Source of the DNA: Escherichia coli
GTDB lineage: Bacteria; Pseudomonadota; Gammaproteobacteria; Enterobacterales; Enterobacteriaceae
Assembly: GCF_046105845.1 (NCBI RefSeq)
Contig: NZ_CP151004.1
DNA length: 64,000 bases
Reading direction: 5' to 3' (one strand)
The notes under the pieces: generated by a model
Told to the model about the DNA's origin: nothing
The model's input: the letters and a program-made list of their open reading frames with translations, nothing else
Database searches by the model: none
Translations under genes and position numbers: made by a program
In this document: piece by piece, positions 43,700 to 64,000 of the stretch
How the letters are laid out: every line of letters starts with the position of its first letter
Position numbering within the stretch: position 1 is the first letter of the stretch

Positions 43700-43708
43700 A
43701 TCCGCTAA

Positions 43709-45822: not shown

Positions 45823-47199
45823 TTACTGACTTTGTTCCACCTTCGTATCCAGTAAAATTACATAGCGATTCAGCAACTGATTTAACCGGGTATCTATCTG
45901 CGTCAACAGCGTCGGCGAAACCTCTCCGGTCTGTTTTTGCTCTTCCAGTTGCCGAAGCAGTTCTTCCAGCGGCGGCTCCTTTAACGACTGCCGGATGCCG
46001 TACACCGCCGTTTTTAGTTCCGAGCCGGTCAGATATCTCCCCTTACGCTCATCCAGTGCATCCAGCTGCGCCGACAGGCGCTGTAGCTGGCTTTGCGCCT
46101 GTGCGTAGCCATTCAATGCCTCAGCAGACATGGCGCTCAGCTCCCGCTGCTTACGCCACTGCGCGTTCAGCGCCCTGACCTGAGGATTATCCGGCCACAG
46201 GGCATCAAGCTGGCGTAGCTGGCGATATCCCTGCTCCAGCGGCCAGCGGGCAGGCAATTTGTTTAACTGCTCCAGCTGCATCTGACTTGCCGCAATTGTT
46301 CTGTCCTGAGCCAGCAGCGCCTTATCCTTTACATCCAGCTTTGCCAGTTCGCCGCTCTCCAGCGACTGCGGCAACGGCATGACAGACAGTTGTATTCGCT
46401 GGATTAGCGCGTCCGGCTGATTAAGCTGCGACCAGCCCCATAATCCTGTTCCGCCGAGACAGGCCATCACAACCATTCCGGCCATAAATATCGGCCATGC
46501 CCGCTGCCGGGAGATTTCAGGGGATGGCACGGATGGACTGGCATCCTTATCGTTTTGCTGAGCGGGTCTGGTTGCAAAAACCGGCTGTGGACTTTCTTCT
46601 GACTTTTTCGGTTGCTTCATTTCCTTGCGGGGTAATTCAGGGGGAGTGATAGTGGTTTCCGCTCCCTGTGGTGCCAGCCGCTCCAGACGTAGCGCCGCAT
46701 TACGAAACTGCCCGGCCAGCACATCCAGTTTCGTCATATGCCACAGTTCACACTGTTGCAGCGTGGTTTCGATGGCGGAAAGATGCTGTACACAACGGTA
46801 AATCTGCGGCAGATCCTGATACTGAATATCCAGCGTTCTCAGTGCCTGCTGCATTTTTTCTGTGACCCAGCTGAGCAGTGATATTCTGGAATGTACCTGT
46901 ACCGGCCAGAAGTCGGCCCATCGCTGGAGCAGTATGTCCAGTGAACCGAGTCCGTCTGCCATCCCTGCCAGCCCCTGCCGTCTGGTTATCGCCAGTACGT
47001 AACAGACCAGCGTCTGTAATTCCACGCCATTTTGCCGGAACAGCGCGAGGCTGAGTTTTTCCACCTGACGCCAGTCCACATCCGGTCGGGCCGGGTGAGT
47101 CAGTTTACTCATTTCAGCCTGCAGTTCACCGGATTCCTTATAAGTACAGGGATCGCCGCCCATGACGAACTGGCTGATAAAATTCGCGTTACTTGCCAT
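45823..47199 (-). CDS. TssA-family (ImpA_N domain) membrane-anchored T6SS accessory protein, TagA/VasL-like
   Basis: 458 aa; N-terminal ImpA_N-like region (GGDPCTYKESGELQAEMSKL...), one central TM helix (AWPIFMAGMVVMACLGGTGLWGW), Q/L-rich coiled-coil C-terminus; last gene of the T6SS block. Confidence 0.6.
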   Translation of the reverse strand: MASNANFISQFVMGGDPCTYKESGELQAEMSKLTHPARPDVDWRQVEKLSLALFRQNGVELQTLVCYVLAITRRQGLAGMADGLGSLDILLQRWADFWPVQVHSRISLLSWVTEKMQQALRTLDIQYQDLPQIYRCVQHLSAIETTLQQCELWHMTKLDVLAGQFRNAALRLERLAPQGAETTITPPELPRKEMKQPKKSEESPQPVFATRPAQQNDKDASPSVPSPEISRQRAWPIFMAGMVVMACLGGTGLWGWSQLNQPDALIQRIQLSVMPLPQSLESGELAKLDVKDKALLAQDRTIAASQMQLEQLNKLPARWPLEQGYRQLRQLDALWPDNPQVRALNAQWRKQRELSAMSAEALNGYAQAQSQLQRLSAQLDALDERKGRYLTGSELKTAVYGIRQSLKEPPLEELLRQLEEQKQTGEVSPTLLTQIDTRLNQLLNRYVILLDTKVEQSQ

Positions 47200-47627
47200 C
47201 AGTACGCCCGCTCCTGCTGTTTGAGATGACGCAGAACAATTCGTCCTTCCGGAGAAAATACGCCATCAAAGCGTATCCAGCCGGTATCGGGAAGCTGCGC
47301 GTGGATCAGGTAATTAAGATGCCCCGGACGGGGCTGGGGGAGTAACTCCACCTGTATCTGACTCAGGCGTGGTTCATAACGCAGCAGCGTTTCTTCAATC
47401 TGACGCATCAGGCCATGAATACCCGCAGCCATCCCCTGATGGATCAGACTGAGATCCGGCAGACCGTAATCCGGCAAATGCGCCAGCGTGCCTGCCCGAC
47501 AGTTGATAATGCGTTGCATATTGTCCATCACGGAAAGGATAAGCTGATCCCGCTCGCTGACCTGTTCCAGTGGTAACTCGCCGCTGAAACTGAACGTCAG
47601 CATTTCATATAAGGAAGGTGTCGACAT
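47199..47627 (-). CDS. tssE: T6SS baseplate protein TssE (gp25-like)
   Basis: 142 aa, size and position between tssJ and the TagA-like gene with a 1-nt overlap; family call by context. Confidence 0.7.
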   Translation of the reverse strand: MSTPSLYEMLTFSFSGELPLEQVSERDQLILSVMDNMQRIINCRAGTLAHLPDYGLPDLSLIHQGMAAGIHGLMRQIEETLLRYEPRLSQIQVELLPQPRPGHLNYLIHAQLPDTGWIRFDGVFSPEGRIVLRHLKQQERAY

Positions 47628-47630
47628 CGG

Positions 47631-48167
47631 TTATTTATCCTTGAGAGGCAGCAGTCGCAGGTCGCTTCTCATCAGTTCAATCGAGCGCGGCTTGTCGGCC
47701 TCCAGTTCGTCCCTTTTGATCACCAGACGCCAGCTGTCGCTTTTTTCATCAGGGTGATAAAACTGCCCGATAATGGCGACAAACTGCGTCTCTTTATCCA
47801 GCGGCTCATTCAGGGATGCCGTGCCTTCCGGTTTTACCCAGACGGTGTGTTTTGCCAGTACGTCCTTCTCCAGCGTCTTCTCTTCCTGCATAAACAGGGT
47901 GTCATAATCCGCCTTGTCAAAATCTTCGCGGGTTTTCAGTTGCCAGACATGCACCATCGTGGAAAGCGGCGTATCTTCCGCATCCGTATTCAGGGCACTT
48001 CGGGAGAAGAAATCGAGATGCAGTATTTTGATTTGCTTGTAGAAAACGGCTGAGGCCACGCTTTTCGATTCATCCACCACTTTCTGAATCAGCCCGCAGC
48101 CACTCAGAACAACCGTCAGCATCGCCATACAGAGCAGCGCCGGACGTTTAAAACGAATAGGAAACAT
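47631..48167 (-). CDS. tssJ: T6SS outer-membrane lipoprotein TssJ
   Basis: 178 aa; lipoprotein signal with lipobox LSGC (MFPIRFKRPALLCMAMLTVVLSGC). Confidence 0.7.
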   Translation of the reverse strand: MFPIRFKRPALLCMAMLTVVLSGCGLIQKVVDESKSVASAVFYKQIKILHLDFFSRSALNTDAEDTPLSTMVHVWQLKTREDFDKADYDTLFMQEEKTLEKDVLAKHTVWVKPEGTASLNEPLDKETQFVAIIGQFYHPDEKSDSWRLVIKRDELEADKPRSIELMRSDLRLLPLKDK

Positions 48168-49236
48168 GAGTCATACACTCCCTGTTACGAATGGATAAAG
48201 CGGGTATTAATCCCTGATAACGCCCCAGACTGACCGTCACTGTTCCGGTCGCGGGCGCGGCAAAGGAGGCGCGAAGGATGCCGGTACGGCTAATCTGTAC
48301 GCGCTGTTTTCCCAGCCGGGCAGCAGGCAACAGGCTGACGGGCAGTGTCAGTTGCAGACGGGCCTGACAGCGCCAGCCCAGATAAACGCGCAGCAGTACC
48401 AGCAAATCGCTGTGCAGCTGTCCGCCAGGCAGCCAGCCACGCGCTTCTGCGGCATCTTCGGTATACAGTTTCAGCAGCAACTGGCTGTTGACGTCGGTGC
48501 CGGTACGCCCCAGCAGCGTTCGCGTTTTCAGGCTGATGCGTGAATTTTTTGACAGACCCGCAGGGGCCGGGAGAATAACAGGCTGCGGATCATGAGGCAC
48601 CACCGTCGCTTTCGTCAGCGGGGCAAGCAGTCCCACCAGTGCCGTAACGCCTTCCGCCGTGCGCGTCGGCAGGCGCATCACGCTGAGCAGGGCCAGAAAA
48701 CGGGATACCGGCGTGGCGATATGGTTCTCGCTGCCGGGAATACCCAGCCCGATGAGTCCCAGCAGACAACGGGAAATGTCATCCACAGCACCTGCTTCAA
48801 ACGACGCCGGGTAGTTATATTTGCGCCAGATGCGGTAATACTGGGTGATAAAGCGGTGGTTAAAAATATCGAGAAACGCCATCACTGCGTCATGTCCGTC
48901 ATGACGCTGGGTAATGTAGTCCAGATAGGCGGTTGGCAGCGGCGAATCCACGCCGTACAGGCCGAAAAAGGTGGTGCGCACCGTGGGTGGTGCGTCGGGA
49001 TTGTCCACGTCACGTTCAACGTTCTTTAACTCGCTGACCGGAAAGCCCATTCCGGGATGGGGACGAAAGCGCACCGCATCGGCGGCGGGGCTGTCGGTAC
49101 TGCCCAGCGGCGCTTTCTGTTGGCTCTGTTCCAGCAACTGGCAAAAACGGTAAAAATTGATCCGCGCAATATCCGGGGCCAGCCGGTCGGTCAGCCCGGT
49201 ACGCGCTGGCTGTGATGCTCTGTCCATTGCAGGCAC
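48148..49236 (-). CDS. tssG: T6SS baseplate protein TssG
   Basis: 362 aa; N-terminal F.F.Q.LE-type motif (INFYRFCQLLEQ); follows tssF with overlap. Confidence 0.75.
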   Translation of the reverse strand: MPAMDRASQPARTGLTDRLAPDIARINFYRFCQLLEQSQQKAPLGSTDSPAADAVRFRPHPGMGFPVSELKNVERDVDNPDAPPTVRTTFFGLYGVDSPLPTAYLDYITQRHDGHDAVMAFLDIFNHRFITQYYRIWRKYNYPASFEAGAVDDISRCLLGLIGLGIPGSENHIATPVSRFLALLSVMRLPTRTAEGVTALVGLLAPLTKATVVPHDPQPVILPAPAGLSKNSRISLKTRTLLGRTGTDVNSQLLLKLYTEDAAEARGWLPGGQLHSDLLVLLRVYLGWRCQARLQLTLPVSLLPAARLGKQRVQISRTGILRASFAAPATGTVTVSLGRYQGLIPALSIRNRECMTHVSYSF

Positions 49237-50951
49237 TTTCCTGTGGGTTGCAGAATTAAGGTCAGTTGAGTGAATAAGTGGATATCGGCATACAGTGCGA
49301 AGAAGCGGTGCAGCAGTTCACCAAACAGTGTGATATCACCTTCTCCGGCAAAGCCGTTACTGTCCAGCGTTACCTGAATATCCACGCCACGCAGCAGAAA
49401 GCCTCTTTCAAAACGCTGTATCAGGCTGTGCTGAACGTCGACAATCGCCTCCAGACGACGGCGGTTCATCTCGCTTTCGGTCCAGTCGTACAACGCCAGC
49501 GTGCCGCGCACAATTTCGGCGTTATCCATCATCGATAAAAAGTTAGAACCAAGGTGGCTGAGCACCCGCCAGTGGAAGCGGTCACGCGCCGGGGGATAGC
49601 AGGGCTGCGTCGGGGCGCACAGGTTGCGCACCCGCAGGACGTTCTGTGAGGCGTGGACTGGCGTATCGAGTAGCGTGCTCTGTAAAGCTTTACGGGGAAG
49701 CTGCCCGTTAGTGCCGGTCAGACTTAAGGACAGAGTTTCATCCTCCAGCATCCGGTCAGAATCAAACGCATCGCCGCCCAGAATCAGCCAGGTATCATGC
49801 AGGCCGGAAGGGCCGCGCTTAACCCGCGTATGGTAATAACGTTCCGGCGCATCGTGGCGCAGCATCCCGCCCCGGTGACGAAAGCTGGAGAATGGCACAT
49901 ACGCCTGACTGCCGGTATGGCGCGAAGAAATAATGTTGTCGACGGAATAAATCTCGGTATGCCCGTCCTGAATTCGCATCGGGCGCAGCAGAAATTCGTT
50001 TTCCAGTGGCGAAAGGTGTAACGGATCGGCTTCCAGCGGGAACAGGTTGATAACCGGCACGCAGTGCAGGCGGAGATTGTCGGTATTAAACGGCAAATCA
50101 TGAGGCCAGCTTTCCGCCAGCACCACGTCAATCTCAAAGCCGGTTATCCCTTCCGGCCAGATGACGTTCTCCAGCCCGTTGAGTGCCACAAACATAAACT
50201 TCTCGCGGAAGGTGAAATACTCCAGCAGCAACTGGTAGCCGCTGAACGCCGACTCGCCTTTTGGCCAGAGCCTGTCATTATCCTCAAAGCCCAACGGGGA
50301 AAAGTGTGCGTCAAGCGTCCGGCGATCCTGCCCCGGCAGACGCAACCAGAACTGCTGCGTACCAAGCGTTAAAGCCCGGTGCAGCGCACAGGCCACCGGA
50401 CTGTCGGCATTGAGATAGAGCGGCAGGCGGGATAAATCGATCTGTGACCAGTCACCGACCAGCGGGCCGCATTCAAAGCGCAGACGAATAACCGAACGTC
50501 CGTCCGGTTCATATTGCAATGACACGTCCGGCAACGCCAGCGGATGCAGCGTGATATCCCGCGTGGCGCTGTAGAAACAGCGGGTTCTGCGCTCGCCAAC
50601 AGGGCGCGACAATACCTGAAAATCGCTCAGCGTTTCGCTCTGCTTCATCTGCCGGTGATCTGTCGACAGTTCAACCACGGAAAGTGACGGGATAGTTCGC
50701 AGGTAGTGAGGCCACAGCAGGCTGACCAGCCCTTCAGTCAGCTCCGGCAGATCGTCGTCCAGCTTCTCGCGCAGGCGGCCCATTAAAAAAGCAAAGCCTT
50801 CGAACAGGCGTTCCACATAGGGATCGCGTGCGCCGGGTTTATCAAGATTGAGCATCGCGGCGCGGTCGGGGTAAGCCTGCGCAAATTCTTTCCCCGCTTC
50901 ACGCAGGTAGCGCATTTCGGCTTCGTAGTAGCGTTGGGTTAAGTCGTCCAT
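49191..50951 (-). CDS. tssF: T6SS baseplate protein TssF
   Basis: About 590 aa; start placed at the ATG of MDDLTQRYYEAEMRYL (the ORF track begins at an upstream TTG, 50990); tssF-tssG pairing. Confidence 0.75.
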   Translation of the reverse strand: MDDLTQRYYEAEMRYLREAGKEFAQAYPDRAAMLNLDKPGARDPYVERLFEGFAFLMGRLREKLDDDLPELTEGLVSLLWPHYLRTIPSLSVVELSTDHRQMKQSETLSDFQVLSRPVGERRTRCFYSATRDITLHPLALPDVSLQYEPDGRSVIRLRFECGPLVGDWSQIDLSRLPLYLNADSPVACALHRALTLGTQQFWLRLPGQDRRTLDAHFSPLGFEDNDRLWPKGESAFSGYQLLLEYFTFREKFMFVALNGLENVIWPEGITGFEIDVVLAESWPHDLPFNTDNLRLHCVPVINLFPLEADPLHLSPLENEFLLRPMRIQDGHTEIYSVDNIISSRHTGSQAYVPFSSFRHRGGMLRHDAPERYYHTRVKRGPSGLHDTWLILGGDAFDSDRMLEDETLSLSLTGTNGQLPRKALQSTLLDTPVHASQNVLRVRNLCAPTQPCYPPARDRFHWRVLSHLGSNFLSMMDNAEIVRGTLALYDWTESEMNRRRLEAIVDVQHSLIQRFERGFLLRGVDIQVTLDSNGFAGEGDITLFGELLHRFFALYADIHLFTQLTLILQPTGKCLQWTEHHSQRVPG

Positions 50952-51026: not shown

Positions 51027-51431
51027 CTAAGGACATATAGATGGATCATTTATTTCAAAAGAAAAATCGGACTCCATACTAGATGAGGATTTTTTCAATA
51101 AAGAGGAGATATGATATCCAGATAAAGTTTTAGAATTGTTACCATCAGATATCAAAATACTAAGTTCAGAAACAATATTTACAGGGTTTTTATTAAAAAC
51201 ATCTGACTCTCTACCTGTGTAAATAAAGTATACAATTGGCTTCCGCTCTCCGATATCAAGATGAAAATTATCTCTTACTTTACCATCATAATGTGTTGAA
51301 TTATTGACCGTCGAAATGTTAATAGATACTTTGCATGTATTTACCATGACAATGGAACAAGAATAGAATGGTTGAGATAAACATCCAGCACACAGCGTAC
51401 ATAATAAAAAAAAGAATATTAATCTAGTCAT
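51027..51431 (-). CDS. lipoprotein-like secreted protein; candidate immunity protein for the upstream PAAR toxin
   Basis: 134 aa; N-terminal signal peptide with Cys cluster (MTRLIFFFLLCTLCAGC...); start overlaps the stop of the PAAR-HExxH gene by 8 nt; AT-rich. Confidence 0.4.
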   Translation of the reverse strand: MTRLIFFFLLCTLCAGCLSQPFYSCSIVMVNTCKVSINISTVNNSTHYDGKVRDNFHLDIGERKPIVYFIYTGRESDVFNKNPVNIVSELSILISDGNNSKTLSGYHISSLLKKSSSSMESDFSFEINDPSICP

Positions 51432-52863
51432 GAAATTTCACCCGAGATAACCATATCATTGCACATACATCGTTTTCGACAGCAACCGACCTTGCATATA
51501 GATCACTGGTGTATATATGCCCATTATAATATTTCATTAAATCTATCTCGCCAGTTCCTGGATAAACTGAATGAGGCAGTGCATATTGAGGTGGTACAAG
51601 ATTAGAGGTCCCTTTATGCTCCCATGAATACGTATTCCCACCGTAACTTTTTAATATCATATGACCAGTCTCATGGGCTACATCAAGTTTAAATTCTAAT
51701 CCAGCCTTAAAAACAGGATCCGCGCCTTTCTGATACCCACGGCCATATTCATAATACCCCCTATTGAAATAAATGTTCATACGTCCCATAAAAGCACTAG
51801 ACCTGACGCTTTCTAGATCTTGCTCCTCAATTAAATCAAAAGAATCCATGGCTGGATCAATATTTATTGATACAGAGATATTTACATTATATTTACCGTG
51901 CGGAGTAGTAATATTATTGCCAATTCCGGGATTCCTCATTCCATTTCGTGCCCAATAATACTCTATTCCATCCTTGGCAAGTTGCTTTAATTTTTCAAAC
52001 CCTACAGGTGCAATACGATCATCTTTATGACTCACACCATCATCTTCAAATTCTACTCGCCAACTGACATCAACTATTTTTTGATTCTTGTCTACTTTTA
52101 CATCAATCCAATCTTCCTCATTCGCAGAAGTTTTCAATGGATAATCAACTTTTATCATCATATCACCACATAAAGCAATCAGTCTTACGAGTAGTGATTT
52201 GCTTTTTAGCTTAGTTGTATCCAGTATGTCTTGATTACTGTAGCCATCCCATTGCCAGGCATGCTCTCCCTTATCAAAATATTTACCGGTCTGCTGTTCA
52301 CTATAAATCACTTCATTACCATCAAGCACTTCCAGAGAAAGCGCTTCAGCCTCATCGCCTTTATTTGTGATGGTAAAATCTATTTTTTCTGTATTCTTCG
52401 TACTACCACCGCTAATCATTTCTTTATAATCAGGTATATTCAATGGCGTCAGTATCTTATTACCTGATAATTTAATTCTGTAATCCAGTTTTACATCATC
52501 TGAGGATGAATCAGAACCAGAAGTCAGATCCTTTTTCGCCGACTGCGCATGTTGTTCCGCTTCACTTCCCCCGTCATCCGTCTCATACACATCATCCATC
52601 ATTGACGCAATAAATCGCGCCTTACACGGGCAACTGCTCTGACTGTCCAGCGATCCCGCCATCAGCCTGCCGTGAATATCCGTTTCCGGCACGCCGCCGA
52701 CGATAATAAACATCCCCGAATGTTTACCGCAGGTCACTCTGTCCATATCCCGCGCCTGCGGGATACCCATGATCGTATGGTCGTCCGCCCCTTCAATAAT
52801 TTTGCCGCCGCAGGTGGTCTTATCGCCCCTGACCAGAAAATAGCCTCTTCCCATCGTCATCAC
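51424..52863 (-). CDS. PAAR-domain protein with C-terminal HExxH (putative zinc metallopeptidase-like) toxin domain
   Basis: 479 aa. The N-terminal ~90 aa fit the PAAR pattern (RGDKTTCGGKIIEGADDHTIMGIPQARDMDRVTCGKHSGMFIIVGG); then an acidic/Ser-rich linker; the C-terminal region contains HETGH. Start overlaps the tssA stop. Confidence 0.65.
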   Translation of the reverse strand: MMTMGRGYFLVRGDKTTCGGKIIEGADDHTIMGIPQARDMDRVTCGKHSGMFIIVGGVPETDIHGRLMAGSLDSQSSCPCKARFIASMMDDVYETDDGGSEAEQHAQSAKKDLTSGSDSSSDDVKLDYRIKLSGNKILTPLNIPDYKEMISGGSTKNTEKIDFTITNKGDEAEALSLEVLDGNEVIYSEQQTGKYFDKGEHAWQWDGYSNQDILDTTKLKSKSLLVRLIALCGDMMIKVDYPLKTSANEEDWIDVKVDKNQKIVDVSWRVEFEDDGVSHKDDRIAPVGFEKLKQLAKDGIEYYWARNGMRNPGIGNNITTPHGKYNVNISVSINIDPAMDSFDLIEEQDLESVRSSAFMGRMNIYFNRGYYEYGRGYQKGADPVFKAGLEFKLDVAHETGHMILKSYGGNTYSWEHKGTSNLVPPQYALPHSVYPGTGEIDLMKYYNGHIYTSDLYARSVAVENDVCAMIWLSRVKFHD

Positions 52864-54497: not shown

Positions 54498-57400
54498 CCT
54501 TCATACTCCTGCCGGTCAGAAATACCTGTCCCGGCAGGCGGAAATTTTTCAGCTCCAGCAGCGCCATCGGCCCTTTGCCCTGTTCAACCCGCAGCAGGTA
54601 ATTCAGCGGCAGGCCGTCCTGCGCTTTCCACACCACTTTAAAGGTACTGCTGTCCACCGGTGTCACCTGCGCCTGTTCCAGCAGACGAATTAGGCTCCAG
54701 CTTCCCCGGTAATCCGCCAGTATACGTTCCATCGCCTGCGTGCTGGTCCAGCTCAGCGATGCGCCGGGTTGCCACTGTTCATCCGGCCAGTTAAAACGCT
54801 GCCAGCGTTCTTTCTGGTTGAAATACTCCAGTTCCTGCCCGTCAATCACCAGATGTGTTTTCATCACGTCTCGGGCCGGTTTTGCCCGCAGTTCAAAATG
54901 TATTCCGGCATCGCCGCTGGCAAAGGCGGTGTCAGCCACGTCACGCAGGCGGTTCAGGGCGCGAATAAAGTCCGGGTTGACCGTCAGCCCCTGCGTGTTC
55001 ATGGCGTCCGCCACCCAGTAGCGGCCTTCACGTTTCAGAACGCCGGAAAGGTTGGCGGCAATAAACTGGTTGATGCGCCCGTCATCGCGCAGATACTGCG
55101 CCAGCAGGGGGAGGGAAGCATCGTTCTGTGAGGCTTTGAACGGGTAGCGACCAGCGAAGTCCTGATTCCAGTGGCTGACAATCGCCCGCTGCCACTGGCG
55201 GTTCAGGCTGTCCGCCGCAGGCGTCAGCACCTGCCGCCACGACTGCTCCACCGGGCGGACGAACAGCGCCTGACCGAAGCCACTCCATTCCTCGCCCAGA
55301 CTGGCGGCGATTAACCGTCCGTAGTCGCGGGTGTCGGTGAGGTCAACGGTTTTGCCCTGCAAGACTGTCTGCGCCAGTTGTTGGGTCATCTCCTGTGGGT
55401 CGGGGGCGTTGGTCACCTGTTGCAGTTTGAGGCGCACGCGGGTGACGCGGGTCAGATACGTTTGCAGGCTGAGTTGCGTATCGCCACCACCGCCTCCGGC
55501 CTTATCGCCCAGCAAACGCAGCAGCGGCGCGAAGGTTTTATCCAGTGGCCCGACAGGCACGTCGTCTTCACGGGATTGCTGCGGCGTTTTCTCCTTGCCG
55601 TTAAACAGTTCCTGTGCCGATTTCGCCAGCGAGTCCGACAGGCCACGGTTTTCCCTGCCAGCCGCCGCCTGCCAGGCGAGGGTGTCCGTCAGCGCAATCA
55701 GCGGCGACTGACGGGCATCGGCCATCAGCGTCAGCTGGTCGAGAATGCCGGAGAGTGAGTCTTCCTTTTTCCAGCGAATGCTGTTGAGAAACGCCAGCCA
55801 GCTTCCGGCAAAGTCGGTAAAGTAGCGTGAGGTGAGACGGTTACGCAGCGTATCCGGCGAGATATCCGCAGAGGTATCCTGCTGGCGGTCGCTGAGTACC
55901 CAGTCGATTTCCTCGCGCCGCGCCGTCACCACCTGCTCGATGGCTTCCCTGACCTGTCCTTCCCACGCCTGACGGGTGAACATCCCCGGCACCGTCTGTT
56001 CCGTACTGAAAAGAGATTCGGTGAGCGTATCCCCGGTCATGTCCGCCAGCGTCATATCGGCGTAGTTGCGGGACACCTGTTGCAGTACGTTCTGGTAGAG
56101 GGTGTTTTCGGCATTGCGCACACCAATCTGGCGCAGCAGGATTTTACGCACCGCGCCGGTCAGTTCCGGTGGCGGCGAGGTTTTCCACTGCGGGTGTTCC
56201 GGCAGGTTCGCCATCCAGAAGGTCAGCAGTGACGGCAACACGCTCTGACGCACACCTTCCGGGATATTTTCATAGCGCAGGCCGTCCGCCATCAGCGTGG
56301 TACTGAAAAAGGCAGCGTCGGCCTTTTCCGGGCGGGAAGTCATCAGCAATGCCTTAAGCTGCTTATAGCGTTGTTCACCAGTGGCGGTACGCTGAGGACT
56401 GTTGGGCGGCAGCGCGACAAAGGCGTTCAGTTGCTGTTGCAGATGGTCAACGGCCACGTCGCGCACCAGCCGGTTTGCCGCCTGTGCATAGCCAGGAAAG
56501 GCGGCGGCGAGCAGTTGCTGGTTACGTTCAAGGCCAAAACGCTGATACCACGGCGCACCTTCGCGGATACGATATTGCAGGCGCTCCAGTTCGCCCTGCA
56601 GGGTATGCAGCGCCACCAGTTGTTCAGACAGCGGCAGCCGGGTATCAAGCGCTCGTGCAGTCTGGATGCTGGTTTCCTGAACAAGCGCGCGGTTGGCGAA
56701 GAAAGAGGTCGTCATTCCGGCCCCCCATATCGCCAGCATGCAGATGCCGCTTATCAGCGCGGCGCGTAGCCACGGAAAGCCCACTGTACGCCCCCGTGCG
56801 TTATCGCCGGTCACGCCCGCCCAGACCGGTGACGGCAGCCACGCATGAGGTGCGGCCTCCGGTACGGCGGTAAGCGGCGGGCTGAACATCAGACCGCGCA
56901 GGCGCAGGGAAGAGAATGCGCCGCCTGCCAGCAGCGGTTTCAGGACGGTCTGCCAGTGAGCGATACCCCGCTCTGCAAGGGTATGAGCCAGACGCAGCAG
57001 GAAATCATGGCGGTTATCGGTCAGCAGTTGCGACATGCCCTGTTCCGTCAGCGGCAGGGTTTGTGCTTCCAGCATTACAGCCAGTTGTTCCGGGGGACAG
57101 CGTTCCGGCAGCAGGCAGCCGACGCTTTGCAGAGGGCGTCCGGTCTGATAATCACCGTTGTCACAGACCTGCCACAAATAGAGTGGGGCCTGAAAACCGA
57201 GTCGCTTACTGCCGTTTATCAGTTCGCGCCAGCCTTTGTCGAGTTGCGCTGTCTGGCGGCTCTGTTCTTCTGTCAGCGCCCAGATGATGCCATCCAGCGG
57301 ACGGCTGCGACGCAGTTTTTTTAAGGCGGTCAGCAGTGTGACATCAGGCTCCGCTGATGGCCTGCCGCCATATATCAGCACCGTGTGGTCGCCCTCCAGC

Positions 57401-57852
57401 CAGTGTTGCCCGGTCAGCCCCGGCGCGATGGCTTCTGCCTGTTCAGGCTCGCCGGTCACCTGCAGCAGGCGGACTTTACGCCGCCAGAACGGACCGTAGC
57501 GGTCGCGCAGGAAGGCGGCGAGTTCCACCATTGCCGGATGACGGCTGTCGGCTTTCTTTGTCGTCACCGCCCGATAGTCATCCCCGGCGGCAAGCTGTCT
57601 GCGGAGTTCAAAGTTCTGTACGGCAGCGTGGCGGTTCAGCAGATGATAAACCCCCATGATAATCAAAAAGACCACGCCTGCGGCAATCACGCCCGCCATC
57701 CAGTACATCTGCTGCGGGCTGCCCGGCTCGACGCCCAGCAATGCCGGTTTACGGTGAATGAGCGTACAAAGTGCAACCACGACAGCCACGGTCATGACGA
57801 TTACTGGCCCTGAGAGCGAACGGGGCCGGAGACGGCTTAATCCCGGAACCAC
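54463..57852 (-). CDS. tssM: T6SS membrane-complex protein TssM (IcmF family)
   Basis: About 1130 aa from a GTG start at 57852-57850, 8 nt after an AGGAGG RBS and overlapping the upstream stop by 1 nt (alternative ATG at 57798; the ORF track extends to 58113). Two N-terminal TM helices, a third TM around residue 430, large C-terminal domain. No Walker A seen by eye. Confidence 0.8.
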   Translation of the reverse strand: MVPGLSRLRPRSLSGPVIVMTVAVVVALCTLIHRKPALLGVEPGSPQQMYWMAGVIAAGVVFLIIMGVYHLLNRHAAVQNFELRRQLAAGDDYRAVTTKKADSRHPAMVELAAFLRDRYGPFWRRKVRLLQVTGEPEQAEAIAPGLTGQHWLEGDHTVLIYGGRPSAEPDVTLLTALKKLRRSRPLDGIIWALTEEQSRQTAQLDKGWRELINGSKRLGFQAPLYLWQVCDNGDYQTGRPLQSVGCLLPERCPPEQLAVMLEAQTLPLTEQGMSQLLTDNRHDFLLRLAHTLAERGIAHWQTVLKPLLAGGAFSSLRLRGLMFSPPLTAVPEAAPHAWLPSPVWAGVTGDNARGRTVGFPWLRAALISGICMLAIWGAGMTTSFFANRALVQETSIQTARALDTRLPLSEQLVALHTLQGELERLQYRIREGAPWYQRFGLERNQQLLAAAFPGYAQAANRLVRDVAVDHLQQQLNAFVALPPNSPQRTATGEQRYKQLKALLMTSRPEKADAAFFSTTLMADGLRYENIPEGVRQSVLPSLLTFWMANLPEHPQWKTSPPPELTGAVRKILLRQIGVRNAENTLYQNVLQQVSRNYADMTLADMTGDTLTESLFSTEQTVPGMFTRQAWEGQVREAIEQVVTARREEIDWVLSDRQQDTSADISPDTLRNRLTSRYFTDFAGSWLAFLNSIRWKKEDSLSGILDQLTLMADARQSPLIALTDTLAWQAAAGRENRGLSDSLAKSAQELFNGKEKTPQQSREDDVPVGPLDKTFAPLLRLLGDKAGGGGGDTQLSLQTYLTRVTRVRLKLQQVTNAPDPQEMTQQLAQTVLQGKTVDLTDTRDYGRLIAASLGEEWSGFGQALFVRPVEQSWRQVLTPAADSLNRQWQRAIVSHWNQDFAGRYPFKASQNDASLPLLAQYLRDDGRINQFIAANLSGVLKREGRYWVADAMNTQGLTVNPDFIRALNRLRDVADTAFASGDAGIHFELRAKPARDVMKTHLVIDGQELEYFNQKERWQRFNWPDEQWQPGASLSWTSTQAMERILADYRGSWSLIRLLEQAQVTPVDSSTFKVVWKAQDGLPLNYLLRVEQGKGPMALLELKNFRLPGQVFLTGRSMKDAEEYGEDADE

Positions 57853-59066
57853 TATGATGCCTCCTGCGGTAAAACGAACGGCGACACCACGGTCGCCCAT
57901 GAATAATGTCCACCCTGAACGCCGCTGAGCGTCAGTTGGGGTTGTTGTAAATGCACTGACGCCAGCGCCGCAGCGGCGACGGACAGCCACGGCGCAGCCG
58001 GGCCGGAGCGCCCCAGAAAGGCATCCAGCTCGTACATCAGGGCTTCCTGAGCAAACGGCTGGTTCAGGCTTAACAACGCGGCACGCTGTTCCCTGTCCAG
58101 TTCGGCAGTCCACATGCCGGATATTGCATCTGGCTGCACCGGCATCCAGTCCAGCGCCTGTGCAATGCCTGACACCATCATCTCTGTATCAGTGATACGT
58201 TCAGGACGATGCAGCAGGGCCAGCGGCGTCAGCGCGGTTTGCGTCAACCGGTTTGCCAGCAACAGCGCGGTGGCGGATTCTGCCGTCCGTTCCGGGTTCT
58301 TCGGTTCAAGTCGTACGGAAATCACCAGCAGTACGGCCTTTTCCTGAATAAAGTTGTCCAGCCAGTCGTCCACGGCGGCCAGCCCCGGCTCCGGGGCAGA
58401 AAACAGACGGGCTTCCGGGAGTCCGGCTTTTTGCCATTCGTCCTGCCAGATAGCCATAACCGTTGACTCAGAAAGCGACGTACTGGTTTCTAAAAGCACG
58501 TTGATATGAAAATCATCGGGTAGCAGCGTCAGTTGCAGCCTGATATCGCTGAACAGACGGGAAAAAACTTCGGATAGACGTCCGGTAACCGGTTTATTGG
58601 TTAATACAGGGATGACACTGCGACGCACAGTATCTTCTCCGCGCAAATCAGCGTAAGTATTCAACACCTGCTGACGCGCCAGAAATGCTGTTGTAGTTTC
58701 TGCAACGGAATCACCATTCAGCGCGGTTTGTACGGAAAAACTGAGTATCTGCAACGCCCGTCGTCCCCGTCGCGTTTCCTGCAAAATCACCTCTTCCCGG
58801 CGCTTATTCCAGGCATCAGCCCGAATGTACTGCGTGATAAAAAACAGCCAGCGAACTGAAGCAACCAGCGACCAGATAAAGGCAGGCACACCACAGGCCA
58901 GCCCCCAGAAATACGGGCCGTTTTTTGCCAGTTCATCGCTGGCAAATAATGAAGTCAGGGCCACACCTGTGGACAGCATCAGTAATAAGGCTGACAGCCA
59001 TTTAATGCGGGCTGGCGGTGTGGGATAGGGTTCTGCGTCGGGAATGGCATGGAGTCGAACAGGCAT
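57852..59066 (-). CDS. inner-membrane protein of unknown function, translationally coupled to tssM
   Basis: 404 aa; two N-terminal TM helices (WLSALLLMLSTGVALTSLF; FWGLACGVPAFIWSLVASVRWLFFI) then a ~300-aa soluble domain with no motif I recognise; GC-rich like the core tss genes. Confidence 0.4.
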   Translation of the reverse strand: MPVRLHAIPDAEPYPTPPARIKWLSALLLMLSTGVALTSLFASDELAKNGPYFWGLACGVPAFIWSLVASVRWLFFITQYIRADAWNKRREEVILQETRRGRRALQILSFSVQTALNGDSVAETTTAFLARQQVLNTYADLRGEDTVRRSVIPVLTNKPVTGRLSEVFSRLFSDIRLQLTLLPDDFHINVLLETSTSLSESTVMAIWQDEWQKAGLPEARLFSAPEPGLAAVDDWLDNFIQEKAVLLVISVRLEPKNPERTAESATALLLANRLTQTALTPLALLHRPERITDTEMMVSGIAQALDWMPVQPDAISGMWTAELDREQRAALLSLNQPFAQEALMYELDAFLGRSGPAAPWLSVAAAALASVHLQQPQLTLSGVQGGHYSWATVVSPFVLPQEAS

Positions 59067-59126
59067 AAAAATAATCCGCTATTAAATTAGGTATATGATG
59101 TGGTTATATCCCGCTTTTCGATTAAA

Positions 59127-59504
59127 TTACTCTGATACATTTATGGTATATATTTTGCCAAACCGTCCTCTGCCACCACCACCTATGGAGAATCCTCCGA
59201 TTTCAATGACTATCGCCCCTTTTACAACAGGGATACCCTGAACAATAAGGCAACTATTTTGGTCTGGCTCAAAAACATCAATAGTCAAACCCGAATTCTC
59301 AGGCCTGAAATCTTTCAATGGAAAAAAAGGTACAGGCCCAACTCCTCCTGAAATCTCGATTTTTGCATAGTAACTCTGACCTAATTTTGCATCAGGCAAG
59401 GAGTCTGGGGAAACAGTAGTTTTTGGGATGATTAGCATATGTAAACATCCAGTTAGTGATATTGATAATGAACATATGAGTAAAAATTGAATTGTCTTTT
59501 TCAT
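59127..59504 (-). CDS. small lipoprotein; candidate immunity protein
   Basis: 125 aa; lipoprotein signal MKKTIQFLLICSLSISLTGC; ATGA start/stop overlap with the upstream gene; Gly-rich C-terminus; AT-rich. Confidence 0.45.
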   Translation of the reverse strand: MKKTIQFLLICSLSISLTGCLHMLIIPKTTVSPDSLPDAKLGQSYYAKIEISGGVGPVPFFPLKDFRPENSGLTIDVFEPDQNSCLIVQGIPVVKGAIVIEIGGFSIGGGGRGRFGKIYTINVSE

Positions 59505-60361
59505 GACTTGTTAGTGTCAATGTCAATATAAACCTGATTGGATCTAATGTTAAATTTATCTTCAAGTTTTTCACCCGACATATCAAGATTTAGCAGTAAT
59601 TTTTTAATTCCATCGTCGTTATTATCACCTAAGCATGAATTATCTGGTTCGAGGTGGCTATTATCTTTATTAAAGAAGCATATGTATTTCTGGCTCAATA
59701 GATTAAACATTTTTTTATAGATGCGCTGCCGAACAAGCCATTGTTCATTGACAAACGGATATTCAAGAGTACCTACCTTGTAACGCCGTAAGCCCGGCGG
59801 AAAAGCATATAAAGATTTATTCAAATAAATACTGACAACATACTTTTCCCCGGATTTAATCTCGAACCAGTTTCCAGAATCAGGATCGTCATCATAGCCA
59901 TTACAAAATGAACCCAGAAAATCCAGTCTTGAGTTATCAGTAATAATAAGAAAGTCTTGTTTACATGATGAGGTATATGCCATGTCTTGTTTATTTTTTT
60001 TAAAAAAAGTCAGAAAAATATCAGGAAGATAGAATGAATGGTGGCTTTTATTTTCAAATTCTATAGTCATTACAACTTCTTTTTTAGATTTTTGCTCTGC
60101 AAATAAACGGATAAACATGTTGATTTCAGACTGTAGCTTTTTATTTTCTTTATCATCCAATAAGTATCCTGGTGAGAGGAAAACATACTTCTCATCATCA
60201 CGTAATGGATAAAAAAAAGGTGAGTCAGTTACTATTCTGCTTTCCCCATAACCATAACCATACTTCTTAAAAACCAGTAAGTCATCGGCAATTGAATTAA
60301 GTGAAAACAGCAATAAGAAACAAAAAATTGCATAATTAATAAATTTACTAAATGTATGCAA
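59501..60361 (-). CDS. secreted protein of unknown function; candidate immunity protein
   Basis: Start placed at the TTG 7 nt after GAAGGAGG, giving the signal peptide MHTFSKFINYAIFCFLLLFSLNSIA; the ORF track's longer version starts at 60397. Very AT-rich. Confidence 0.45.
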   Translation of the reverse strand: MHTFSKFINYAIFCFLLLFSLNSIADDLLVFKKYGYGYGESRIVTDSPFFYPLRDDEKYVFLSPGYLLDDKENKKLQSEINMFIRLFAEQKSKKEVVMTIEFENKSHHSFYLPDIFLTFFKKNKQDMAYTSSCKQDFLIITDNSRLDFLGSFCNGYDDDPDSGNWFEIKSGEKYVVSIYLNKSLYAFPPGLRRYKVGTLEYPFVNEQWLVRQRIYKKMFNLLSQKYICFFNKDNSHLEPDNSCLGDNNDDGIKKLLLNLDMSGEKLEDKFNIRSNQVYIDIDTNKS

Positions 60362-60448
60362 AATAACCTCCTTCAATAAAAAATCAAAAAAAAACACAAG
60401 TTACATTTTACTCTAAATATAACTTGATTGATTAACAATTAAAGAAGA

Positions 60449-61252
60449 TTACTCGGGTGGTGGTGGGGGATTATTATCAACTATAATTTTTAAATCCTTA
60501 CTCATGTCCTCTTCCACAGATTTTTTTATATCTATTAAAATCTCTTCATTCAGAGCTATCTGAAAATATTTCTCAACATTATAAGCACTTCTGAAAACGG
60601 CCTGATTGTGTTGACTAACCATTGTTTTTGCAGCAGCCAAATGAGCATCACCACTCATAAATGCCGGTTTCCCTTGCGCATTCATATCATGTGTGCTCAT
60701 TCCACCACCAATACCACCTTTGCCGGTCCTACAAAAATGAGACATTTCATGACACAGCGTTGAAACCTGAGAATCAACACCACATAATGGTTTGTCCTTA
60801 AACTTTCCAGCTATAAAAATATGATAATCTTTATCAATAAATTCATTAACTCTGGCAGTGAAATTCCCACATACCGTATTATTAATATAATAGCAAGTTA
60901 ACACTCCATCCTTATCATATCTGAACATTTGATTATGAATTGTTTTAATCCTCTTGATACCATCCTGCATTATTAACAATGCAGTCTGTTTAGTTTCATC
61001 ATCATCTCCTATCAATTCATCACCTTTGGTGCCAAATATTTTATAAAACTCGCTTATCTCTTTTTCCTTCCCCCCCTTATTCCAACCCTCAAGAGAATGT
61101 TCGCGAATCTCAAGAACTTTTTCTTGGGCTTTGTGTGCTCGTAATATCATCTCTTTAAATTTATTAGTAATAACAACTTCAGCGACACAAATCTCTACAG
61201 TAGCTGGAGCTGGAGCTGGCTTGCCGTTTGATATTTTATTTCCCATATACAT
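60449..61252 (-). CDS. VgrG-adjacent protein with HExxH motif; candidate T6SS effector (putative metallopeptidase-like)
   Basis: 267 aa starting 6 nt after the vgrG stop (alternative ATG at 61246 has better RBS spacing). No signal peptide; contains CHEMSH followed by a Gly-rich segment; Pro-rich termini (PAPAPA, PPPPPE); AT-rich. Confidence 0.5.
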   Translation of the reverse strand: MYMGNKISNGKPAPAPATVEICVAEVVITNKFKEMILRAHKAQEKVLEIREHSLEGWNKGGKEKEISEFYKIFGTKGDELIGDDDETKQTALLIMQDGIKRIKTIHNQMFRYDKDGVLTCYYINNTVCGNFTARVNEFIDKDYHIFIAGKFKDKPLCGVDSQVSTLCHEMSHFCRTGKGGIGGGMSTHDMNAQGKPAFMSGDAHLAAAKTMVSQHNQAVFRSAYNVEKYFQIALNEEILIDIKKSVEEDMSKDLKIIVDNNPPPPPE

Positions 61253-61258
61253 TCCCTG

Positions 61259-63760
61259 CTAGTCGATCAGAACTTCAGGAAGTATTAATTCAACCTTTAT
61301 TTCCTGATCATTGTCTCTATTAAAGTTTTCTGTGTTTCCGTTATCATCAGTTACTCCCTCCTTTTGCGTCCCTTCAGCAAAGTATGCAATATATTTTGTG
61401 TTCGCATAAGGTATGCCATAATCATCCACAAAGTGAAACTGAAGGTTATATTCCCCGCTCTCAATCAACGGAAATGCCATTAGTTCCGGCGTCAGCTTCG
61501 CCTTCGGCTTACGACCGTAATATCCCGCCTTAACGTTATATTCTCCCGGCGTTCCAGCTTCTATCCCGCAGGCATCCAGCCGGATATAGCTGCCACCGCC
61601 GTTTAGGGTGATTTTCTTCTTCGCGGTGATCTTGATCTCATCTTCCGTACTGGTGATCACTATCGATTTCTGAGCCAACAGTTCCATCAGATCGTTCTGT
61701 GCCTGTACCGAGATCGCCCCCTTGTTGGCAAACAGCTTGATACCCGCTTTGCGCACAAACACGCTCAACGCCTGACCCACACCGATAAACATATTCTTCA
61801 CAACACCGATATCAGCGTGATTTCCTGCGTTCGCGATCAGGTTTTTCGATGCCGCCAGTTGCAGGTGCTCTCCGCTGGCGATCGCCACGCCTTTGGGTGC
61901 GCTTAGCAGGATCGCAGCCTGCGTCAGATCTTTTACACTCTGCTGCAACAGCGCTATCTGTGATGACAGATCTGCCGGATCGGCATTCGCCGTCTGCGCA
62001 TCAGTGGACAGCGACTTCATCTGTGACTGTGCGCCATCCAGTATTGCCATCGCCGGAGCCATTTCGCGCACCTGACCCTGCGCCTTGTCCTGCGCGTCGG
62101 CGCTGATAAAGATGCCTTTCTTTGCCCGCACCGCGCCCCACAGATCGGTACGCAGTTCAAAGCCTTCCCCGCGCTGCTGTTTCCCGGCGTCCACCAGATG
62201 ACCGAGGTTTAGCTGGCTCTTGCCGCCGTACTCGGTACTGACCTTGATATGCTCTTTGCCGCGCTCGTCATCCAGCCGGATTTTGTTGTTTGCCGGGGTG
62301 CGCAGCACGTTACGCTTGTAGTTCTGGATGGTCACATGGTCGGTGTGCGCCGAGTCGTGCTTTACCCCGGCGATATACGGTCGGTCCGGGTTGCCTTCCT
62401 CAAAGGCGATACTGACTTCCGTTCCCGCCAGCAGCGGCAGGTGCAGGCCGTAGGTGTCTCCCGCATACGGGCGCGACTGGCGCACCCACAGGCTTTCATA
62501 ACCCGGTTTCCACGTCTCGCGGTCAAAGTCGAGGTTGACCCGGTAGCGCCCGTCCTTGTCGATATGGGCATAGATATCGTTCTTCACCGTGCTGGTGACC
62601 CGCGCCGGGAGCGTTCCGGCCATGACCGGGCGGGGGATAAACGCCGGGCGGTAGCCGTAGCGTTCTGAGTACGGGATAGCGGTAAACGTCAGTTCATAGC
62701 TGCGGTCACGCGCCGCGCTGGCCGTCACGCCGGTAATCAGTACGCCCTTGCGGAACACCGCTGGCGCGTCGTCGCCCTGAACCCTGATTTCCAGCCCCGG
62801 CATCAGCAATGAACTGGTGCTCTGGCCTTTGAGAATGGCCTGTTCATTCAGGTAGCGTTCGTGGCGGATACGGGCATAAAACGCGCCGCTTTCCGCTGAT
62901 TCCTGGTCGCCTTTTTGCAGGAAGTTGTCGGCGTAGTGATAGGCTTCGCCGTAGGTGGTGTTATCGCCCCCGGTGGCGTCATGCTGCTCTGTCATCATCT
63001 CTGCTGTGGCGGTGCGGTAGTTGTAGTCCCGCGTGGTGACGCTTTTCTCCACCACGCTGTATGCCGTGTTCAGCCCCCATACGGCTTCCGTTTCACCATC
63101 AAACAGCCCTGAAGTATGGCGAAGCGGCAGCGTCAGTCCGCGCTCGTAGCCGCTCTGGTCGTCGTAAAACTCGACAACCTCAATTTTCAGCCGGGCGTCG
63201 GTGGCAAAGCGGAACCAGATACCCACTTCCGACAGCAGGCGTGAAATAAACGTCAGGTCGTCCTCACCGTACTGCATCACCTGTTCACGGGACGGGTATT
63301 CGCTTTTGAGGTTAAACACGAAGTCCTGACCGCGCATCTGATGCCGCTCGCGCAGGATTTTTTCGACGATTTGCGGCACCGTCAGATTCTGGTAGATGGC
63401 GTTCTGGCGGCTGCGGGCCAGCAGTGCCATACGGGGTTCAAGGCGCACTTCGTAACGGGCTTCATCCTGTGACGAGGAGAGATGTTTAAAGCCAGTAATG
63501 ACCCCGTACAGGGTGCGCAGGGGGGCCTGCACCGGCATTCCCTGTACGGGCGGTGCCGTCAGGCTGAATGCGCCGTCCTGCATCAGCACCGACTCCGGCT
63601 CGATGGCTTTATCGGTACTGGTAAACTTAATGTCGTAGCGGAAGGGGGCGCTGAGTTGCTCACTACCCGTAAAGGTCAGCACGTCCACCGGGCTTTTCAG
63701 GCTGCGAATTTTGAGCTTGTGGTGCGCGTGGTTAAAGTTTAGGGCAGGAATATTCATCAT
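61259..63760 (-). CDS. vgrG: T6SS spike protein VgrG with C-terminal extension
   Basis: 833 aa; gp27/gp5-like VgrG body, beta-helical region, then an extra ~100-aa C-terminal segment (...ELMAFPLIESGEYNLQFHFVDDYGIPYANTKYIAYFAEG...). Confidence 0.85.
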   Translation of the reverse strand: MMNIPALNFNHAHHKLKIRSLKSPVDVLTFTGSEQLSAPFRYDIKFTSTDKAIEPESVLMQDGAFSLTAPPVQGMPVQAPLRTLYGVITGFKHLSSSQDEARYEVRLEPRMALLARSRQNAIYQNLTVPQIVEKILRERHQMRGQDFVFNLKSEYPSREQVMQYGEDDLTFISRLLSEVGIWFRFATDARLKIEVVEFYDDQSGYERGLTLPLRHTSGLFDGETEAVWGLNTAYSVVEKSVTTRDYNYRTATAEMMTEQHDATGGDNTTYGEAYHYADNFLQKGDQESAESGAFYARIRHERYLNEQAILKGQSTSSLLMPGLEIRVQGDDAPAVFRKGVLITGVTASAARDRSYELTFTAIPYSERYGYRPAFIPRPVMAGTLPARVTSTVKNDIYAHIDKDGRYRVNLDFDRETWKPGYESLWVRQSRPYAGDTYGLHLPLLAGTEVSIAFEEGNPDRPYIAGVKHDSAHTDHVTIQNYKRNVLRTPANNKIRLDDERGKEHIKVSTEYGGKSQLNLGHLVDAGKQQRGEGFELRTDLWGAVRAKKGIFISADAQDKAQGQVREMAPAMAILDGAQSQMKSLSTDAQTANADPADLSSQIALLQQSVKDLTQAAILLSAPKGVAIASGEHLQLAASKNLIANAGNHADIGVVKNMFIGVGQALSVFVRKAGIKLFANKGAISVQAQNDLMELLAQKSIVITSTEDEIKITAKKKITLNGGGSYIRLDACGIEAGTPGEYNVKAGYYGRKPKAKLTPELMAFPLIESGEYNLQFHFVDDYGIPYANTKYIAYFAEGTQKEGVTDDNGNTENFNRDNDQEIKVELILPEVLID

Positions 63761-63804
63761 TATTTTCCTGTATAGATAGAAATATTTTCGTCATTAAAAA
63801 TAAA

Positions 63805-64000
63805 TCAACAATGAAACTCAATGAACTCTCGCCATTGTGGTGTCGCATTATTTTTCACTAAGAAATCGTTTCTTTCATCAGGTGATAGACTGTGCCAGAA
63901 CGGAGACCAAATACTCTCCCACCAGAACTCAACTTCTCCTTGTAAGCTACCGAAAGTATCGGGTTCCAACTCAGGAAAAACATCCCATGGCACAGGTTCT
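63805..64000 (-). CDS. hypothetical Trp-rich protein, probably 5'-truncated by the window end
   Basis: Minus-strand frame is open to the window edge; C-terminal sequence ...FWWESIWSPFWHSLSPDERNDFLVKNNATPQWREFIEFHC; no recognisable family. Confidence 0.3.
   Translation of the reverse strand, partial: EPVPWDVFPELEPDTFGSLQGEVEFWWESIWSPFWHSLSPDERNDFLVKNNATPQWREFIEFHC

Follow-up and report, generated by a model that had tools for sequence, protein, structure and literature searches.

A type VI secretion cluster assigned to T6SS-1 (subtype i2) in the aspV–yafV interval of Escherichia coli

Gene content and order of the cluster

The window, a stretch of 64,000 nucleotides of Escherichia coli DNA (assembly GCF_046105845.1, contig NZ_CP151004.1), ends within a cluster of type VI secretion system (T6SS) genes that begins downstream of yafV and is encoded throughout on the minus strand. 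Judged from protein identities and gene order, with no phylogeny built, the cluster is assigned to T6SS-1, subtype i2, a known system of the Sci-1-like kind. With high confidence, the block is read as the yafV-proximal portion of an island of approximately 36 kb that occupies the aspV–yafV interval of E. coli and encodes a complete T6SS of this type. The portion of the cluster within the window amounts to 58% (18.2 of approximately 31.2 kb) and is made up of the following genes, given in coordinates of the whole window, with the starts of open reading frames (ORFs) adjusted against public annotation.

45823..47199, minus strand: TagA-like gene, 458 aa (Pfam ImpA_N, E = 2.4e-10; VasL, E = 9.5e-39)
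47199..47627, minus strand: tssE, baseplate subunit, 142 aa (NCBIfam TIGR03357, 87 bits; cut-off 53)
47631..48167, minus strand: tssJ, outer-membrane lipoprotein of the membrane complex, 178 aa (NCBIfam TIGR03352, 79 bits; cut-off 32)
48148..49227, minus strand: tssG, baseplate subunit, 359 aa (NCBIfam TIGR03347, 261 bits; cut-off 143)
49191..50951, minus strand: tssF, baseplate subunit, 586 aa (NCBIfam TIGR03359, 573 bits; cut-off 260)
51027..51431, minus strand: lipoprotein ORF, 134 aa (from the sequence and gene table; no family match)
51424..52854, minus strand: PAAR effector gene, 476 aa (N-terminal PAAR domain, β-sandwich, C-terminal zincin, metzincin-like)
52860..54470, minus strand: tssA of the ImpA_N + VasJ type, 536 aa (TIGR03362, 476 bits, cut-off 230; Pfam ImpA_N, T6SS_VasJ)
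54463..57795, minus strand: tssM, inner-membrane subunit of the membrane complex, 1110 aa (TIGR03348, 259 bits; Pfam IcmF-related, IcmF_helical, IcmF_C)
57852..59066, minus strand: membrane protein gene, 404 aa (remote DUF2875 relative by profile)
59127..59504, minus strand: lipoprotein ORF with lipobox LTGC, 125 aa (from the sequence)
59501..60361, minus strand: exported protein gene, 286 aa, 32% GC (N-terminal Sec-type signal sequence; no family match)
60449..61246, minus strand: VgrG-linked cargo protein gene, 265 aa (PDB sequence match; family M35-like)
61259..63757, minus strand: vgrG spike gene, 832 aa (NCBIfam TIGR01646, 451 bits; cut-off 122)
63805..64000, minus strand: 3' end of a 205-aa gene (continuous 99.985% match to GCA_044249515.1, in which the complete gene is called)

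ORF calls, NCBIfam and Pfam place every gene named in a preliminary description of this DNA on the minus strand, in the order given there, and the frequent start/stop overlaps that it reported are borne out by 7 overlapping neighbour pairs, with intergenic distances ranging from −37 to +87 nt. Matches to promoter and terminator consensus sequences (20 against 16.9, and 20 against 19.3, in shuffled sequence) show no excess and give no evidence of operon structure. The first gene had been called TagA-like, a label that its product justifies: an ImpA_N domain (residues 24–112) and a VasL domain (residues 306–448) are separated by a hydrophobic stretch, AWPIFMAGMVVMACLGGTGLWGW, which is the TagA architecture, and residues 14–405 are 32% identical to the TagA region of the locus in enteroaggregative E. 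coli (EAEC) 042. The Prokaryotic Genome Annotation Pipeline (PGAP) names this gene product 'VasL domain-containing protein'.

None of tssB, tssC, hcp, clpV, tssK and tssL was seen in the window, whose remainder was checked only in part: positions 1–25000 correspond to chromosome of the ecp/pao region and positions 36000–44300 to lfhA-yafL-dpaA-yafJ-fadE, and ivy and yafV were identified by NCBIfam.

Extension past the window and assignment to T6SS-1

A protein identical to the 265-aa cargo protein is encoded on contig DBAMWG010000005.1 of assembly GCA_044249515.1, which matches window positions 50449–64000 at 99.985% identity, with 2 mismatches. Past position 64000, this contig opens with the 205-aa gene, one of 296 aa and another vgrG (829 aa); next come clpV (881 aa), hcp (163 aa), tagL (569 aa), tssL (221 aa), tssK (445 aa), tssC (512 aa) and tssB (166 aa). 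Beyond tssB lie a 313-aa gene, AlpA, a ParB of the PFGI-1 type (TIGR03764, above cut-off) and an HTH_35 protein, then a split P4-like integrase, the tRNA-Asp gene aspV, dnaQ and rnhA. All 13 core genes tssA–tssM are thereby present, tssA, tssE, tssF, tssG, tssJ, tssM and vgrG (tssI) in the window and tssB, tssC, tssK, tssL, hcp (tssD) and clpV (tssH) in the extension. In window-equivalent coordinates, the T6SS genes run from 45823 to approximately 77018 (31.2 kb) and aspV lies at approximately 81399, giving an island of about 36.3 kb. The window thus holds part of a T6SS with the rest outside it, as had been proposed, and the core genes sought past 64000 are found in GCA_044249515.1. The extended cluster is neither decayed, being complete in GCA_044249515.1, nor contiguous with unrelated mobile DNA, two outcomes that the preliminary description had allowed for; the sole contiguous mobile DNA is a 3.4-kb remnant of the island's own integrative-element backbone.

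The gene order of the window and extension, tssB-C-K-L-tagL-hcp-clpV-vgrG-(cargo)-X-tssM-tssA-(PAAR)-tssF-G-J-E-tagA, is identical to that in strains 536, R12 and EAEC 042. In a megablast search of 5426 complete E. coli genomes, the metV islands carried by R12, MP1, 536, F11 and similar strains came out as the best relatives over the full length, at 95–96% DNA identity. At the protein level, identity is 93–99% to the metV T6SS-1 of 536 and 32–67% to Sci-1 of EAEC 042, both with the same gene order, and 21–33% to the aspV T6SS-2 of O157:H7 Sakai, in which the order is different and TssJ has no match. The 536 system is subtype i2, or T6SS-1 in the scheme of Journet and Cascales, whereas the aspV systems of avian pathogenic E. 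coli (APEC) O1 and of ECC-1470 are T6SS-2, subtype i1 (PMC5422975, PMC8715443). The assignment of the window cluster to T6SS-1 follows from this division of the literature, with the 536/Sci-1 type counted as i2 and the aspV type of APEC O1 and ECC-1470 as i1.

The chromosomal site, taken by itself, points to the other system. The aspV–yafV interval is exactly that of the usual aspV T6SS-2 (subtype i1) of enterohaemorrhagic E. coli (EHEC) O157:H7, APEC O1 and ECC-1470, and T6SS-2 variants are placed at tRNA-Asp in the literature (PMC8715443), so that the window might have shown a T6SS-2 whose Rhs cargo lies further on. Such a reading is barely credible against the identity of only 21–33% to the Sakai cluster, with its unmatched TssJ, the different gene order, the FHA and Rhs genes not seen in the window or extension, and the near-identity of the proteins to those of the 536 metV T6SS-1. 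Comparison with the aspV T6SS islands of pathogenic E. coli, suggested in the preliminary description, therefore holds for the site, which is the same, and fails for the system, which is assigned to T6SS-1/i2 and not to T6SS-2/i1. A contractile particle of the phage-tail type, that is, a tailocin or extracellular contractile injection system with no anchor in the membrane, is equally hard to credit and is already refuted by gene content: T6SS-specific membrane-complex genes occur both in the window (tssJ, tssM) and in the extension (tssL, tagL), TssA, TagA and ClpV are all encoded, and tape-measure, lysis and tail-fibre genes are lacking.

Among T6SS-1 clusters, that of the uropathogenic strain 536, of CFT073 and of ST131 (at metV, the 'Ec536' variant, i2) has an order identical to that of the window and extension from tssB to the VasL/TagA-like gene. 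The 536 cluster encodes the same PAAR–metalloprotease effector, and R12 has the same VgrG cargo module. The 536-type cluster occupies the metV–amiC interval with no integrase, whereas the window island lies between aspV and yafV beside a P4-like integrase, AlpA and ParB; its border, unlike that of the 536-type cluster, includes a SymE fragment beside a truncated mucR-like gene, and its tssF is intact where that of 536 is frameshifted. Sci-1 of EAEC (042/17-2, on the pheU island), the experimental model of i2 systems, shares the order, including tagL, the gene upstream of tssM and TagA, with identities of 45% for TssM, 67% for TssF, 54% for TssA and 32% for TagA. It differs in its integration site, pheU as opposed to aspV, and in its cargo, which comprises Tle1, a phospholipase, along with Tli1 and a small free-standing PAAR protein, whereas the window encodes two predicted zinc proteases, one of which is fused to PAAR. 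With the aspV T6SS-2 of EHEC O157:H7, APEC O1 and ECC-1470 the window island has the aspV–yafV interval in common. An ISAs1 remnant stands beside yafV in Sakai, and an O158:H23 relative of the window island has one too; the ImpI (FHA) and Rhs cargo genes of the Sakai T6SS-2 were not seen in the window cluster.

The cluster is read as probably complete and probably antibacterial. Several observations weigh against this. For the sequence beyond position 64000 the source is an assembly that differs from the window by 2 mismatches in 13.5 kb, not the record of the window itself. TssM scores 259.5 bits against NCBIfam TIGR03348, below the cut-off of 388.15, and the signal peptides and lipoboxes of the cargo-associated proteins described below were assigned by eye. 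Related T6SS-1 clusters are often decayed: there are frameshifts in the tssF of 536, the tssM of O158:H23 and the tssC of MB06171, and the last strain has also lost tssM, most of tssA and the 404-aa gene by deletion.

For TssM, the match to TIGR03348 is confined to residues 448–1194 of the long ORF, the periplasmic C-terminal part of the protein, and the name 'ImcF-related family protein' given by PGAP results from the score under the NCBIfam cut-off. TssM is nonetheless 45% identical over its full length (1130 columns) to the experimentally studied TssM of EAEC Sci-1, and scans that trust TIGR03348 alone would wrongly call tssM absent in a Sci-1-type cluster.

Given how often T6SS-1 clusters are decayed in relatives, the source strain may carry a lesion beyond the window. 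That the cluster there is a non-functional remnant, through a lesion in the unseen half or through silencing, would be in keeping with the independent inactivating lesions of 536 (tssF), O158:H23 (tssM) and MB06171 (tssC, tssA–tssM), with the division of the integrase into ORFs of 74 aa and 340 aa and with the truncation of the neighbouring mucR-like regulator. It is nevertheless an unlikely account, since the nine apparatus genes of the window all match intact homologues in length, the window copy is free of the lesions seen in 536, O158:H23 and MB06171, and the remaining apparatus genes, as called in GCA_044249515.1, are of normal length (166, 512, 445, 221, 569, 163 and 881 aa). For annotation, the island is best labelled T6SS-1 (subtype i2) and not aspV T6SS-2, with its second half expected to be complete.

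A working scheme for the apparatus can be drawn from established T6SS biology, mainly that of EAEC Sci-1. TssJ, TssM and TssL, with TagL as anchor, would form an envelope-spanning complex, and TssE, TssF, TssG and TssK would build the baseplate around a VgrG trimer capped by the PAAR protein. TssA would prime and coordinate polymerization of the Hcp tube and TssBC sheath, and the TagA-like protein, at the opposite membrane, would catch the distal end, thereby keeping the sheath extended. Contraction would then drive Hcp, VgrG and PAAR into a neighbouring cell, with ClpV recycling the sheath. Two toxins would be carried on the spike, a metzincin-like protease fused to PAAR and the 265-aa M35-like protease bound to VgrG, and the producer would be shielded by periplasmic immunity proteins.

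Borders and chromosomal site of the island

Homology to other E. coli downstream of yafV stops at position 45158, and foreign DNA begins at approximately 45159, so the island edge is not at 45823, where the preliminary description had put it. Two features precede the TagA-like gene.

45220..45406 (45227–45407 in the border comparison), plus strand: fragment of a SymE-family type I toxin gene, approximately the first 60 codons (NCBIfam SymE, E = 3.5e-9, residues 5–59, below cut-off)
45387..45758, minus strand: mucR-like regulator gene, 123 aa, 3'-truncated (Pfam ROS_MUCR, E = 1.8e-11)

The SymE fragment is 93–94% identical to E. coli genes named 'SymE family type I addiction module toxin'. The mucR-like gene reaches 99.5% DNA identity to genes named 'MucR family transcriptional regulator', with homology ending at 45407; from that position onwards the sequence matches the mucR-like and TagA-like genes that flank T6SS-1 at metV in strains such as W, E24377A and MB06171. 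The junction removes the 3' end of the mucR-like gene, as its product has 123 aa here and 182 aa at metV, and the truncated ORF retains the ROS_MUCR domain. The yafV-side border is accordingly a mosaic junction, in which a SymE fragment abuts a cut mucR-like gene. O158:H23 has an ISAs1 fragment in place of the stretch corresponding to window positions 45159–45822.

At the far border, the tRNA-Asp gene (12475–12551 of the segment retrieved from GCA_044249515.1) stands beside dnaQ, with the P4-like integrase ORFs adjacent to it at 10989–12213; the island is thus bordered by a tRNA gene with a neighbouring integrase, as expected of a genomic island. The integrase is split into ORFs of 74 aa and 340 aa in GCA_044249515.1 and is a single 408-aa gene in GCA_052981255.1. 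Of the two boundary markers that had been proposed, aspV is therefore accounted for. The other, a direct repeat, was not found: the 3' end of aspV has no match longer than 8 nt in positions 45000–46000 and nothing relevant across the whole window. The lack of an aspV 3'-end repeat, together with the split integrase, suggests that the island is now fixed in place. The earlier statement that no tRNA-Asp gene lies between yafV and the island edge agrees with ARAGORN, which finds a single tRNA gene in the window, for tRNA-Thr at 23701–23776. In K-12 there is nothing between aspV and yafV but yafT, ykfM and two pseudogenes, yafU and yafF, in accordance with the earlier view that the interval is occupied by small genes there and that the block described here is accessory DNA.

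T6SS-1 inserts at tRNA-Met (metV) and T6SS-2 at tRNA-Asp, separate sites that permit co-carriage, and T6SS-2 variants are mutually exclusive owing to their shared aspV insertion point (PMC8715443). The cluster described here lies not at metV, the usual T6SS-1 site, but between aspV and yafV. Among the 5426 complete genomes, 1341 carry a T6SS-1 tssB, and T6SS-1 at aspV was found in two, O158:H23 CFIAFB20140388 and MEW; two independent junction queries (yafV to the TagA-like gene, and ParB-AlpA-tssB) recovered the same pair. The annotated order in O158:H23 CFIAFB20140388 is aspV, ISEc31, ParB, AlpA, tssB to VasL, an ISAs1 fragment and yafV. The draft assemblies GCA_023859905.1 and GCA_018015415.1 have the same junction on the dnaQ side, and GCA_052981255.1 and several read-archive assemblies have the integrase-ParB-AlpA-tssB backbone in common with it. 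The exception concerns location only, and the kind of system is unchanged. A chromosomal site defines the usual island and not the T6SS machine itself. T6SS-1 at aspV is expected to exclude T6SS-2 from the lineage that carries it.

The core chromosome flanking the island (ecp, pao, thrW, fadE, ivy and yafV; window positions 1–44300) has best identities of 97.7–98.6% among the 5426 complete genomes, from which it appears that the source lineage has no close representative in that set. Nor is the source among the GTDB species representatives, in whose genomes 78 nt from the window end had no exact match. A cryptic Escherichia clade, considered because of the flank identity of 97.7%, was rejected: positions 1–25000 reach 98.6%, and exact proteins of the window have been deposited as E. 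coli proteins.

Cargo modules and the gene upstream of tssM

Two blocks of low GC content, at 50975–52515 and 59078–61317 (34–35% GC, as against 56–60% for the apparatus genes), coincide with the segments that vary among relatives, the breakpoints of the window against R12, 536 and O158:H23 being 50975/52515 and 59078/61317. The breakpoint of the first block that falls inside the PAAR gene lies past the PAAR domain. Both toxin modules are cassettes of low GC content, exchanged by recombination within the PAAR gene and at the 3' end of vgrG.

The PAAR effector has an N-terminal PAAR fold, and its N-terminal approximately 120 residues also occur in PAAR proteins with a pyocin-S, Ntox44 or Tle1 domain. 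The C-terminal approximately 350 residues match no Pfam family, and homologues over their full length are encoded by E. fergusonii, Salmonella, Citrobacter, Serratia and bacteria of the Pseudomonas group. An HExxH motif (H394, E395 and H398) is invariant; the extended metzincin signature, HExxHxxGxxH plus a Met-turn, was not found in the protein. The effector is predicted to be a metzincin-like zinc protease fused to PAAR.

The 265-aa cargo protein resembles the peptidyl-Lys metalloendopeptidase of PDB entry 1g12 (E = 4e-4, over 37 residues around HExxH) and AsaP1, both of family M35, and a homologue with 34% identity is named 'peptidase M35' by NCBI. The M35 (aspzincin) family is defined by HExxH with a downstream GTxDxxYG that supplies the Asp ligand. 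In the cargo protein, H166, E167, H170, T185 and D187 are invariant across 8 homologues, forming HEMSH followed by G-G-M-x-T-x-D. The AlphaFold2 model has a pLDDT below 50 over residues 123–181, the active-site region, and is unreliable there. The protein is predicted, from these motifs and matches, to be an M35-like (aspzincin) zinc metalloprotease. Both toxins are thus zinc metalloproteases by prediction, and both are uncharacterised.

Downstream of each toxin gene comes coding sequence for an exported protein or lipoprotein, on account of which both toxins probably act in the periplasm of rival Gram-negative bacteria. The 134-aa ORF (30% GC) has a lipoprotein-type signal sequence and overlaps the stop codon of the PAAR toxin gene by 8 nt; it is a candidate immunity gene for that toxin, and public gene calls on near-identical contigs skip it entirely. 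The 125-aa lipoprotein is started 22 codons late in public calls, with the loss of its signal peptide and lipobox. Both lipoprotein ORFs are likely to be immunity genes, and the 286-aa exported protein is a candidate for a periplasmic immunity or accessory role in the VgrG cargo module. The cargo and immunity candidates have no NCBIfam match, and precomputed Pfam records for the called cargo and 404-aa genes hold the PAAR motif alone. The vgrG2b island of the Pseudomonas aeruginosa H2-T6SS, which encodes a periplasm-acting zinc metallopeptidase toxin and an exported immunity protein that neutralizes it (PMC6560169, PMC7376260), is paralleled by this arrangement. In P. aeruginosa the protease forms the C-terminal part of VgrG2b; of the two in the window, one is fused to PAAR and the other is an unfused cargo of VgrG.

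The vgrG in the window is the second of two in the cluster, and is 94.7% identical in DNA to the upstream copy over 2255 nt (61470–63724, against 3489–5743 of another segment of GCA_044249515.1). The 205-aa gene that is cut by the end of the window is part of the cargo that accompanies the first vgrG, outside the window, and also occurs in E. coli 536. The two vgrG copies lie approximately 4 kb apart in direct orientation, and in R12 and O158:H23 a single vgrG module stands at the corresponding position. Such a pair is a ready recombination substrate for deleting or swapping the intervening cargo module.

The 404-aa membrane protein, encoded directly upstream of tssM, has N-terminal transmembrane helices and no Pfam, NCBIfam or direct PDB match. 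Its family comprises 331 representative clusters, with relatives of approximately 400 aa. In a direct BLASTP comparison, the protein has only a 21-residue match to its counterpart in EAEC 042, a 382-aa gene product also encoded upstream of tssM; a profile of 35 family members aligns with that counterpart at an hhalign probability of 98.4% (E = 7e-15). The family profile also matches PDB entry 8yz3 (DUF2875; E = 1e-4) through the near-invariant motifs LHRP and LGxxGAAxPW, and none of the 35 members matches Pfam DUF2875, even at E = 0.1. The gene lies directly upstream of tssM in all T6SS-1 clusters compared, EAEC Sci-1 included, and for two distant members (25–30% identity) it again has tssM on one side and a small PAAR gene on the other. 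Although the gene belongs to the conserved backbone, it diverges faster than its neighbours (91–93% identity as opposed to 96–99%).

The vgrG2b island of the P. aeruginosa H2-T6SS likewise encodes a DUF2875 protein, PA0259, together with Tle3. One account makes PA0259, named Tla3 or Tli3, an adaptor of Tle3 (PMC6560169), another a Tle3 immunity protein (PMC7376260). PA0259 goes with tle3, whereas the 404-aa protein is a remote DUF2875 relative fixed beside tssM. Tentatively, and with the odds against the combination as a whole, the 404-aa protein may be a so far unrecognised accessory component of i2 systems, acting at the cytoplasmic domain of TssM or in spike or effector loading and not as cassette immunity, with T6SS-1 able, as its placement at aspV suggests, to travel as the cargo of an integrative element targeting aspV and thereafter to block T6SS-2. 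In a system that is otherwise known, the only points of novelty, all mild, are its rare position at aspV, two predicted effectors of the zinc-protease kind and a DUF2875-like gene conserved beside tssM.

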